Source: a virus. Taken from it: DNA of 64,000 nucleotides. Within the stretch, counting starts at the first letter, position 1, and every line of letters begins with the position of its first letter. A program made the position numbers and the translations under genes. Positions 6,254 to 6,377 of the stretch are shown piece after piece. The notes under the pieces were generated by a model, which saw nothing but the letters and a program-made list of their open reading frames with translations, had not been told where the DNA came from and made no database searches. The stretch covers positions 1 to 64,000 of the IMG/VR virus record IMGVR_UViG_3300035499_000465, one strand, 5' to 3'.

Positions 6254-6377
6254 GCCGAGGAGGCGGAATGGTATACGCACCGGACCCGTATTGAGGGTTG
6301 AAAAAATTCTTGAGACTGCAACTGGACTGTAAATCTGGCGTCTTTTAGACATGGAAGTTCGAATCTTTCCCTCGGCA
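6254..6377 (+). tRNA. aberrant 124-nt tRNA-like gene, possibly type-II tRNA-Tyr (GTA) with ~40-nt insertion between D-arm and anticodon arm
   Basis: Perfect acceptor GCCGAGG/CCTCGGC. T-arm GGAAG-TTCGAAT-CTTTC. Candidate anticodon hairpin CTGGA-CTGTAAA-TCTGG. Variable arm GTCT-TTT-AGAC. An extra segment CCGGACCCGTATTGAGGGTTGAAAAAATTCTTGAGACTGCAA has no place in a canonical tRNA. Confidence 0.4.

Follow-up and report, generated by a model that had tools for sequence, protein, structure and literature searches.

An interrupted tRNA-Tyr gene in a phage tRNA array as a possible Y-RNA-like partner of a Ro60-like protein

Y RNAs with tRNA-like domains adjoin Ro60 genes in more than 250 bacteria and phages (PMC4201824). 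The YrlA RNA of Mycobacterium smegmatis is cut by RNase P and receives CCA, and hence consists of two paired halves (PMC4201824). The Ro60 protein of phage phiLo binds two Y-like RNAs (Yrl1/2) encoded upstream of its gene (PMC12135203), and TROVE proteins with their tRNA-like partners have been seen as RNA-repair platforms in jumbo phages (PMC7824862). The gene studied here, a tRNA-Tyr(GUA) gene interrupted by 42 nucleotides (nt) at positions 6254-6377, probably belongs with these Ro60-associated tRNA-mimic RNAs. It lies in a stretch of 64,000 nt (positions 1 to 64,000 of the IMG/VR virus record IMGVR_UViG_3300035499_000465, hereafter the window), which is an AT-rich (~32% GC) part of a large phage genome and starts within a plus-strand tRNA array at 74-6457. 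We give an even chance to the reading that the product is a one-piece, tRNA-shaped, Y-RNA-like partner of a Ro60-like protein, with the insert retained.

The gene at 6254-6377 is a complete type-II tRNA-Tyr(GUA) cloverleaf whose anticodon stem is interrupted on its 5' side by 42 nt, as read from the sequence and the Rfam tRNA model. The 5' part (6254-6279) holds the acceptor 5' strand GCCGAGG, A8 and G9, the D-arm GCGG-AATGGTAT-ACGC with G18 and G19, and A26. The 3' part (6322-6377) runs from the proximal CTGGA through the anticodon loop CTGTAAA, TCTGG and the variable arm C-GTCT-TTT-AGAC-AT to the T-arm GGAAG-TTCGAAT-CTTTC, the acceptor 3' strand CCTCGGC and A73. The original prediction, made by a model from the letters alone, had already named a perfect 7-bp acceptor stem, this T-arm, a type-II-like variable hairpin GTCT-TTT-AGAC and a candidate Tyr anticodon hairpin; all four are there as described (GCCGAGG/CCTCGGC for the acceptor, CTGGA-CTGTAAA-TCTGG with anticodon GUA for the hairpin), and the T-arm has one G.U pair. 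The insertion that it put at about 40 nt amounts to 42 extra nt after A26 (6280-6321), and the tRNA-Cys that it saw 7 nt downstream is a tRNA-Cys(GCA) on the plus strand at 6385-6457. The Tyr features of bacterial type are present, i.e. GUA, U33, A37, a long variable arm, A73 and G1-C72, while position 8 is A where U is usual.

The Rfam tRNA model (RF00005) spans 6254-6377 end to end with 35.7 bits (gathering score 29, E = 9e-5 to 9e-4). In this cmscan alignment, which covers model positions 1-71, the distal candidate for the 5' strand of the anticodon stem, CCGGA at 6280-6284 (positions 27-31), is paired with UCUGG (TCTGG, 6334-6338), and 48 nt are taken as the anticodon loop instead of the usual 7. 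Among other Tyr copies that are interrupted or permuted, positions 39-43 covary with the distal strand but not with the proximal (A/C/T)TGGA. ARAGORN, run both with and without its intron option, misses the gene, so the check in intron mode that had been proposed for it returned nothing. The suggestion of an elongated tRNA such as Sec or Pyl does not hold: the tRNA-Sec model of Rfam has no match at this site, the anticodon is GUA, the acceptor is the standard 7 bp with a standard T arm, and it is an insert in the anticodon arm that makes the gene longer. The folding energy is ordinary (z = -0.83). In the minimum-free-energy fold the hairpins of the acceptor, T, variable and anticodon parts are retained, and a further one of 9 bp with four G.U pairs, TTGAGGGTT-GAAAA-AATTCTTGA, forms inside the insert at 6291-6313.

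The insert has a simple layout and appears to be under constraint. Its proper part (6285-6321) consists, in the same fold, of the tail CCCGTA, the hairpin, the spacer GA and CTGCAA at 6316-6321, so that the order is a hairpin, 2-4 nt and CUGCAA immediately 5' of the anticodon hairpin. The insert boundary is ambiguous between 26/27 and 32/33 because C(C/T)GGAC stands on both flanks. We retrieved 80 related phage loci from IMG/VR through the DUF2828 protein described below (numbered with L here), all with tRNA arrays upstream of that gene, and the closest relative, L003, carries the same interrupted Tyr gene at 9264-9386. Conservation of the insert, a point that the original prediction had left to be checked, is high in this pair: the insert is free of substitutions and has a single loop indel, compared with a difference of ~16% in the flanking spacers, and the whole gene including the insert has 2 differences in 124 nt. 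Since the insert is free of substitutions where its flanks diverge, we take it to be constrained. The L003 contig is the only place where exact and degenerate searches of IMG/VR found another copy of the insert; no intron-less allele of the gene was found, a metagenome scan for the insert gave chance matches only, and a megablast of the region against GenBank phages gave nothing. Two huge-phage records that share the vault-like protein of the window have no tRNAs near it. A multi-copy mobile element was ruled out as the origin, the insert being without a second copy in the window.

The insert resembles a module that occurs hundreds of times across the 80 related loci. We define this module as a stem of ~7 bp, a spacer of 1-4 nt and C(A/T)GC(A/G)A, on the tRNA strand and near a DUF2828 gene. 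CAGCAA is biased to one strand in the related arrays (372 vs 136), has a conserved AAGAC upstream and peaks 11-17 nt past tRNA 3' ends. A 7-bp closing partner 15-207 nt downstream was found for 235 of the 636 unique plus-strand sites, compared with 69/636 for shuffled 7-mers and 44/664 on the minus strand. The excess of pairing on one strand indicates a unit in which a closing stem is followed by 1-4 nt of spacer, CAGCAA and a cargo, with the return strand of the stem at the end. Pair counts on our alignment A4 are circular because its rows were chosen for pairing, and the shuffled and minus-strand counts above serve as the unbiased control. The cargos are short AU-rich stretches (35-45 nt), lone anticodon stem-loops, whole tRNA-like bodies whose acceptor is replaced by the closing stem, and permuted tRNA-like domains. 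When the permuted order was searched for independently, as a T-arm followed by the acceptor 3' strand, a short linker, the complementary acceptor 5' strand and a D-arm, the plus strand gave 35 unique cores and the minus strand gave none; the motif lies upstream in 31 of them and NCCA follows the acceptor strand in about 10. Beyond the stem and CAGCAA, the module shows nothing conserved. Pairing of CAGCAA in cis with the tail or the 3' junction, as judged by inspection, occurs in some Pro-class members (GCAA/TTGC) and was dropped as a general rule.

The same module seems to be used as an insert in tRNAs. Many further interrupted tRNA genes were found in the related loci by a structural scan (T-arm, 7-bp acceptor, D-arm and a length above 95 nt), with inserts of 40-55 nt on the 5' side of the anticodon stem and a common layout of a hairpin, 3-5 nt and C(A/T)GCA(A/T/C), the hairpin loops often being GNRA-like. 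The position of the window's insert before the anticodon hairpin matches that in L004, L010, L120 and the permuted Tyr genes. The locus L120 (IMGVR_UViG_3300018495_000076) has, at 2150-2700 on the minus strand, three successive tRNA genes with hairpin-C(A/T)GCAA inserts, one of them a Tyr gene of the same design, followed by two ends-type units; ARAGORN calls zero tRNAs in this entire locus. We built a covariance model, R1, from ends-type modules only, recast as hairpins (CAGC(A/G)A copies with a 3-nt spacer). Its best matches are the hairpin inserts of interrupted tRNAs, i.e. L082 (23.3 bits), L120 (21.3) and L010 (19.6), and a model trained on ends-type units that finds tRNA inserts best implies that the insert topology uses the same module. 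The tRNA inserts are thus the same unit with its two stem strands joined by a small loop. A regular-expression hunt for a hairpin with CWGCA and a relaxed scan for long tRNAs were too noisy to use.

The interrupted genes last over long distances. Their acceptor stems vary and yet remain paired by compensatory changes among divergent phages, and in one class L039 differs from L006 by a pair of compensatory changes across the insert (28:42 and 29:41). Interrupted, permuted and contiguous Tyr genes occur together in one phage clade. Orthologous interrupted genes with the same body have differing anticodons (GTA/GAA/TAA; TGG/AGG/GAG), and such a drift is unusual for decoding tRNAs. The module is combined with tRNA parts in several topologies, replacing the acceptor stem, extending the anticodon stem or forming an internal hairpin, and such variety is more in keeping with a modular handle than with a signal for removal.

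The constant neighbour of the module is a gene for a DUF2828 protein, whose predicted structure is a Ro60-like fold. In the window this DUF2828/DUF7788 protein (504 amino acids, Pfam) is encoded at 8132-9646 on the same plus strand as the Tyr gene and 1.75 kb downstream of it. Its AlphaFold2 model (pLDDT 73) shows a HEAT-repeat TROVE ring and a vWA domain and matches Ro60/TROVE structures along its full length in Foldseek; the top 12 PDB matches are all Ro60/TROVE with E = 4.7e-8 to 3e-4, including Rsr of D. radiodurans and the Ro60 of Thermus phage phiLo. A sequence-only search of the protein against PDB gave no match. Homologues are encoded in at least 711 cultured phage records, covering FelixO1-like, Listeria, Staphylococcus, Bacillus, Campylobacter and mycobacterial phages, and the mycobacteriophage homologues carry the annotation 'Ro-like RNA binding protein'.

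The module adjoins the DUF2828 or 'Ro-like' gene on the same strand in all six distant cultured phages that we examined, each with 3-6 stem-CAGC(A/G)A units, and likewise in every related locus that the protein retrieved. These are Bacillus phage Tsamsa (L157, 11302-13914), Salmonella phage FelixO1 (L158, 5713-6545), Listeria phage LP-124 (L159, 3664-3927), Mycobacterium phage Rumpelstiltskin (L160, 5472-5728), Staphylococcus phage 6ec (L161, 5526-5733) and Enterococcus phage iF6 (L162, 3288-3872). The units are unannotated in the records of the six phages, and several stand behind TTGACA-17-TATAAT promoters. No paper on DUF2828-linked RNAs, the CAGCAA module or phage permuted tRNA genes was found in our library, which is incomplete, and the stem-CAGCAA RNAs are apparently an undescribed family that is widespread in phages. 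We also note that Listeria phage LP-124 has a match to the ROOL RNA (87 bits, E = 3e-16, just below the gathering score) at 2471-3022, between its tRNAs and the DUF2828 gene.

We propose that the Tyr gene is transcribed into a tRNA-Tyr(GUA)-shaped RNA that would be cut from the array by RNase P and 3' processing, as its neighbours are, and that would keep the 42-nt insert in its mature form. The insert would be a diverged copy of the module (a short stem, 1-4 nt and C(A/U)GCAA), the constant part of the small-RNA family beside DUF2828 genes, and by analogy with Ro60 and Y RNAs the module may serve the Ro60-like protein as a handle for binding. As variable cargo, the tRNA part would show its body and the Tyr anticodon loop to proteins that recognize tRNAs, for example repair enzymes, nucleases or modification enzymes. 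The handle would then project from the anticodon stem of a tRNA-Tyr body with natural ends, which would make this RNA a one-piece, unpermuted topological variant of the permuted YrlA-type RNAs; the latter, with the acceptor hairpin opened by RNase P, would have the same architecture in two pieces. A role in RNA repair or as a decoy in counter-defence is what we infer from this picture. Of the alternatives that the original prediction listed, a Y-RNA-like tRNA mimic is the one most favoured by the comparative evidence, i.e. the module architecture and the nearby DUF2828 gene, but the gene is not a member of the described YrlA family, since the Rfam YrlA model has no match in the tested parts of the window and the ends of the gene are tRNA ends and not a Ro-binding terminal stem.

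Several points weigh against a retained handle and in favour of splicing. The tRNA part is fully canonical, with natural ends, Tyr identity elements and an exact 5+7+5 anticodon arm after removal of the insert, and this is the expected look of a functional intron-containing tRNA. Removal restores a perfect 5-bp stem and 7-nt loop in both the Tyr gene and the Pro-like class, no second tRNA-Tyr is visible in the array of this phage, and we know of no working tRNA with a 42-nt arm retained in its anticodon stem. The insert in the window is also a weak copy of the module, with CTGCAA instead of CAGCAA and a stem outside the AAGAC type in which four of the pairs are G.U. R1 has no full-length match in 6254-6377 and Rfam YrlA has none in 1-6600 (E <= 5) or 2380-2560 (E <= 10). 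The layout of a hairpin, 2-5 nt and C[AT]GCA[AT] occurs 5 times in 128 kb of window compared with 4.6 in shuffles, and for a given 42-nt stretch the layout alone has a chance probability of ~1e-3. The DUF2828 protein may bind the module, a suggestion drawn from gene neighbourhood. A serious rival is therefore that a protein endonuclease, recognizing stem-CWGCAA and/or the tRNA body, cuts on both sides of the insert and the heal-and-seal enzymes of the phage rejoin the ends: excision gives a flawless tRNA-Tyr, and the phage has ligase-like, kinase-like, phosphoesterase and exonuclease genes (RNA-ligase-like, AAA_33 kinase-like and RNase T-like in the window). A kinase, a phosphoesterase and an RNA ligase would seal the nicked anticodon stem, maturation of the permuted genes would run the same way through circular intermediates, and the expected product is a tRNA-Tyr of ~85 nt in which ACGCACCGGA is joined to CTGTAAATCTGG. 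The changes at 28:42 and 29:41 across the insert, NCCA in about 10 of the 35 permuted cores, the three successive interrupted genes of L120, and the mixture of interrupted, permuted and contiguous Tyr genes in one clade, as with archaeal bulge-helix-bulge (BHB) introns, all agree with this, as do the unexplained tRNA introns of Lak megaphages, one of them in Tyr(GTA) (PMC6784885). The insertion or intron at an unusual position that the original prediction offered first is accurate as a description, and its excision is a candidate step. We consider such an excision possible but doubtful. The splice-site sequences and their distances to the module vary among classes, the module also flanks cargos that cannot be spliced (AU-rich stretches of 35-45 nt, anticodon stem-loops alone and tRNA-like bodies with the acceptor replaced), its constant neighbour is a Ro60-like RNA-binding protein and not a nuclease, and anticodons drift in orthologues. 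We prefer a handle to a removal signal because of these unspliceable cargos, the fixed RNA-binding neighbour and the drift. The wider claim, that phages encode a protein-catalysed pathway of RNA cutting and rejoining (an endonuclease and a heal-and-seal ligase) with stem-CWGCAA as its recognition element, perhaps organised by the Ro60-like and vault-like proteins, by which the Tyr gene is spliced and the permuted copies are processed via circular RNA, seems to us unlikely on present evidence.

No known splicing device was found around the insert. A group I intron is rejected since the insert has 42 nt and a core needs ~200 nt or more; Intron_gpI has no match at E <= 10, and a U before the 5' junction is absent across the whole ambiguous boundary range. 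A BHB intron is rejected by inspection, as two 3-nt bulges and a 4-bp helix cannot be drawn around 6280-6327, and the splicing endonuclease domain tRNA_int_endo was not found in 38 scanned open reading frames (ORFs) of the window, a part of all its ORFs. The self-cleaving ribozyme families (hammerhead, twister, pistol, hatchet, HDV-like) have no match at E <= 10 in 6150-6480 or at E <= 5 in 1-6600, and a small ribozyme is further argued against because only an A-rich tract is conserved before the closing 3' strand of the module. It is improbable, in our view, that the gene is a relic, i.e. a tRNA-Tyr disabled by an insertion at the DNA level, for example by recombination with the neighbouring module RNA gene, and now a pseudogene or neutral. 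The imperfect 6-nt direct repeat C(C/T)GGAC around the insert (with a similar CGGAC repeat in L004), the degenerate module copy, the 9-mer AGACATGGA that the upstream module RNA has in common with the Tyr gene as a hint of local recombination, and the lack of an ARAGORN call would fit a relic, but all four tRNA arms are intact, the gene with its insert differs from L003 at 2 of 124 nt against ~16% in the flanks, interrupted genes of this design are kept across divergent phages, where changes in the acceptor stems compensate each other, and the window holds no second copy of the insert. Still less credible, and hardly to be expected, is that CAGCAA is a DNA-level or transcriptional element of the array (a promoter, terminator or recombination site) that the insert places upstream of tRNA-Cys. 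The motif does lie 60-130 nt upstream of the next tRNA, 69 nt before tRNA-Cys in the case of the Tyr gene, whose spacer to it is only 7 nt, and some copies follow TTGACA-17-TATAAT promoters; it stands after these sigma-70-like promoters, however, and does not replace them. Its closing stem covaries over long range on one strand only, the hairpin loops are often GNRA-like, and few of the other interrupted tRNAs have another tRNA close behind.

The array of the window itself holds eight stem-N1-4-C(A/T)GCAA units in its tRNA spacers, and a ninth CAGCAA at 2087 has a weak closing stem. None of the eight is annotated by standard tRNA and Rfam tools, and 10 of the 18 plus-strand CAGCAA sites of the window fall within its first 6.5 kb. 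All eight units are on the plus strand. The nearest one upstream of the Tyr gene is an ends-type RNA at 6180-6240 (AAGACA-TGGA-CAGCAA ... TGTCTT) with a Lys(UUU)-type stem-loop TTCGA-CTTTTAA-TCGAA as cargo (6206-6222); it occupies the site of tRNA-Lys(UUU) in relatives and its orthologue is L003:9190-9253. The 9-mer mentioned above lies in this RNA (AAGACATGGA-CAGCAA) at 6182-6190 and again at the junction of the variable arm and T-stem of the Tyr gene at 6347-6355, and AAAAGAC (6178-6184) could pair with GTCTTTT (6340-6346); the repeat and the complementarity may be chance or a trace of recombination. Further ends-type RNAs lie at 5043-5140, right after tRNA-Leu (TTAGACAC-AATC-CAGCAA ... GTGTCTAG), at 3298-3403 as a CTGCAA variant (TAGGCAT-TTA-CTGCAA ... 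GTGCCTA), at 2285-2352 with a short AU-rich cargo (TTAAACGC-ATA-CAGCAA ... GCGTTTAG) and at 507-617 behind a TATAAT promoter-like site (AAGACTC-ATA-CAGCAA ... GAGTCTT), the last being the top R1 match in the window (17.6 bits). The unit at 2778-2870 (TAGACACA-TT-CAGCAA ... TGTGTCTA) contains a D-arm-like hairpin, a UCC stem-loop TTTTC-CTTCCAA-GAAAA and a T-arm, and that at 2605-2690 (TTAGATGCA-TA-CAGCAA ... TGCATCTAA) has a T-arm-like hairpin GATAG-TTCGAAT-CTATC. The unit at 2412-2526 (TAAGACAG-GTT-CAGCAA ... CTGTCTTG) carries a circularly permuted tRNA-like cargo with its core at 2449-2506, in the order T-arm ATTGG-TTCGAAT-CCAAT, acceptor 3' strand ATTCTCA, GCCA, a 5-nt linker, acceptor 5' strand TGAGAGT and D-arm GCCT-AGAGGGTA-GGGC. 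A strongly conserved sigma-70-like promoter (TTGACA, 17 nt, TATAAT, within TATTATATAATAAATATATA) stands before many module RNAs and tRNAs, with sites at ~475-500, ~2385-2405 and 4830-4950 of the window and others in L109, L129 and L131.

Downstream of the Ro60-like gene, a gene cluster of the RNA-repair type runs from 9782 to 24684 on the plus strand according to Pfam scans. It starts directly after that gene with a major-vault-protein-like gene (MVP shoulder and Vault_3 domains, 9782-12226), followed by Thg1-like (12498-13343), HD (13829-14293) and RlaP-like nucleotidyltransferase (14663-15451) genes. Three metallophosphoesterases (15451-16227, 22192-22917 and 24130-24684), an RNase T-like exonuclease (16715-17518), cREC_REC (17515-17952), an RNA-ligase-like gene (18031-19389) and an AAA_33 kinase-like gene (23602-24129) complete it. 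A Band-7/flotillin-like gene is found at 24733-26232. The Ro60-like, vault-like, flotillin-like and RNA-repair genes together resemble predicted cage-forming RNA-repair systems.

The related arrays contain other unusual tRNA genes. Inserts of 55-240 nt in the anticodon loop with a GAGTNCAANNCTC hairpin are found at L017:4094-4287, L018:6860-7043, L054:3396-3524, L061:4076-4220, L078:4042-4186 and L078:7806-8116, and they resemble Lak-phage introns or small group I introns. CUA (amber suppressor) tRNAs, labelled Pyl by ARAGORN, occur in many related arrays (L004-L082), and anticodon loops of 8 nt (anticodon 'taaa') in several (L074, L079-L081); both are hints of stop-codon recoding or quadruplet decoding in the clade. 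Type-II bodies with GAU or GAA loops, unlike the usual identity, are seen at L021:1090-1215, L082:329-452, L039:3691-3811, L018:1304-1429 and L004:9185-9310. Some permuted Tyr-like copies have A33 in place of U33 (L009:6277-6411 and L017:7028-7158). At L003:1316-1404 ARAGORN reports an 89-nt tRNA-Ile(TAT) whose enlarged variable region contains CCCAGCAAGG, which may be another placement of the motif.

If the Tyr gene does encode a Y-RNA-like partner, DUF2828 proteins gain a family of RNA partners with a simple searchable signature, and the function of phage Ro60-like proteins becomes testable in model phages. The tRNA arrays of large phages would then hold many tRNA-derived non-coding RNAs (permuted, interrupted or anticodon-stem-loop-only) that tRNA finders miss or mislabel. 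The Lys UUU and Tyr GUA anticodon loops are known targets of anticodon nucleases, and the module RNAs with matching loops suggest decoy or repair roles in phage-host conflict. If the insert is excised instead, it would point to a new tRNA splicing system in bacteria, and a true cut-and-rejoin pathway would be the first non-group-I tRNA splicing and provide the first functional permuted tRNA genes in bacteria or phages. Under either reading the 'aberrant tRNA' belongs to a wider system and is not an annotation curiosity.

Among the known systems, the group I introns in bacterial tRNA anticodon loops are similar in that an intervening sequence sits in the anticodon arm. They have 200 nt or more, however, compared with 42 nt here, and the window's insert lacks a P3-P9 core, an Rfam match and a U before the junction; candidate inserts of group I size (110-240 nt) are present in other tRNAs of the related loci. 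Permuted tRNA genes of Cyanidioschyzon merolae and some archaea mature via circular intermediates. BHB-dependent intron-containing, split and permuted tRNA genes in Archaea and C. merolae were reportedly the subject of work by Soma et al. in 2007 and Chan et al. in 2011. The phage module is comparable to the BHB systems in that one junction element appears in three topologies (tRNA insert, flanks of permuted tRNAs and stand-alone copies) and the permuted order is 3' half, (N)CCA, short linker and 5' half, but it has no BHB motif, no splicing endonuclease was seen, the hosts are bacterial, CAGCAA is conserved and the cargo also includes non-tRNA sequences. The Lak megaphage introns likewise interrupt phage tRNAs, including Tyr(GTA), in the anticodon region, are not group I, are kept between relatives, are missed by bacterial tRNA finders and are unexplained in mechanism (PMC6784885). 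They differ in being ~93 nt or longer, 3' of the anticodon and with a T-arm-like hairpin, while the window's insert, of 42 nt and without any hairpin like a T-arm, precedes the loop on its 5' side, and the CAGCAA module is not seen in the single printed Lak example (PMC6784885).

The closest likeness in architecture is to YrlA. Rfam YrlA (RF02553), whose consensus is itself a permuted tRNA-like domain, matches two DUF2828-linked units of phage iF6 (E = 1e-7 to 1e-9, and 1e-5), both below the curated threshold. We therefore dropped the idea that permuted tRNA genes are wholly new here, as YrlA is a permuted tRNA mimic in the literature. The motif differs, being a stem with CAGC(A/G)A here and GNCGAA/CGAA in YrlA, the partner is of the DUF2828 clade instead of canonical TROVE, and the cargos here include real 7-nt anticodon loops. 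YrlA is permuted and its acceptor is closed; the Tyr gene is unpermuted, has genuine tRNA ends and carries CTGCAA within an internal hairpin. What the two have in common is that small RNAs are encoded on the same strand beside a Ro60-family gene in several copies per locus, that a constant protein-binding stem region is conserved chiefly on the 5' strand, that the tRNA-like domain comprises a T-arm, a D-arm and an acceptor of 7 bp, and that RNA-repair genes (RtcB or Rnl) are associated.

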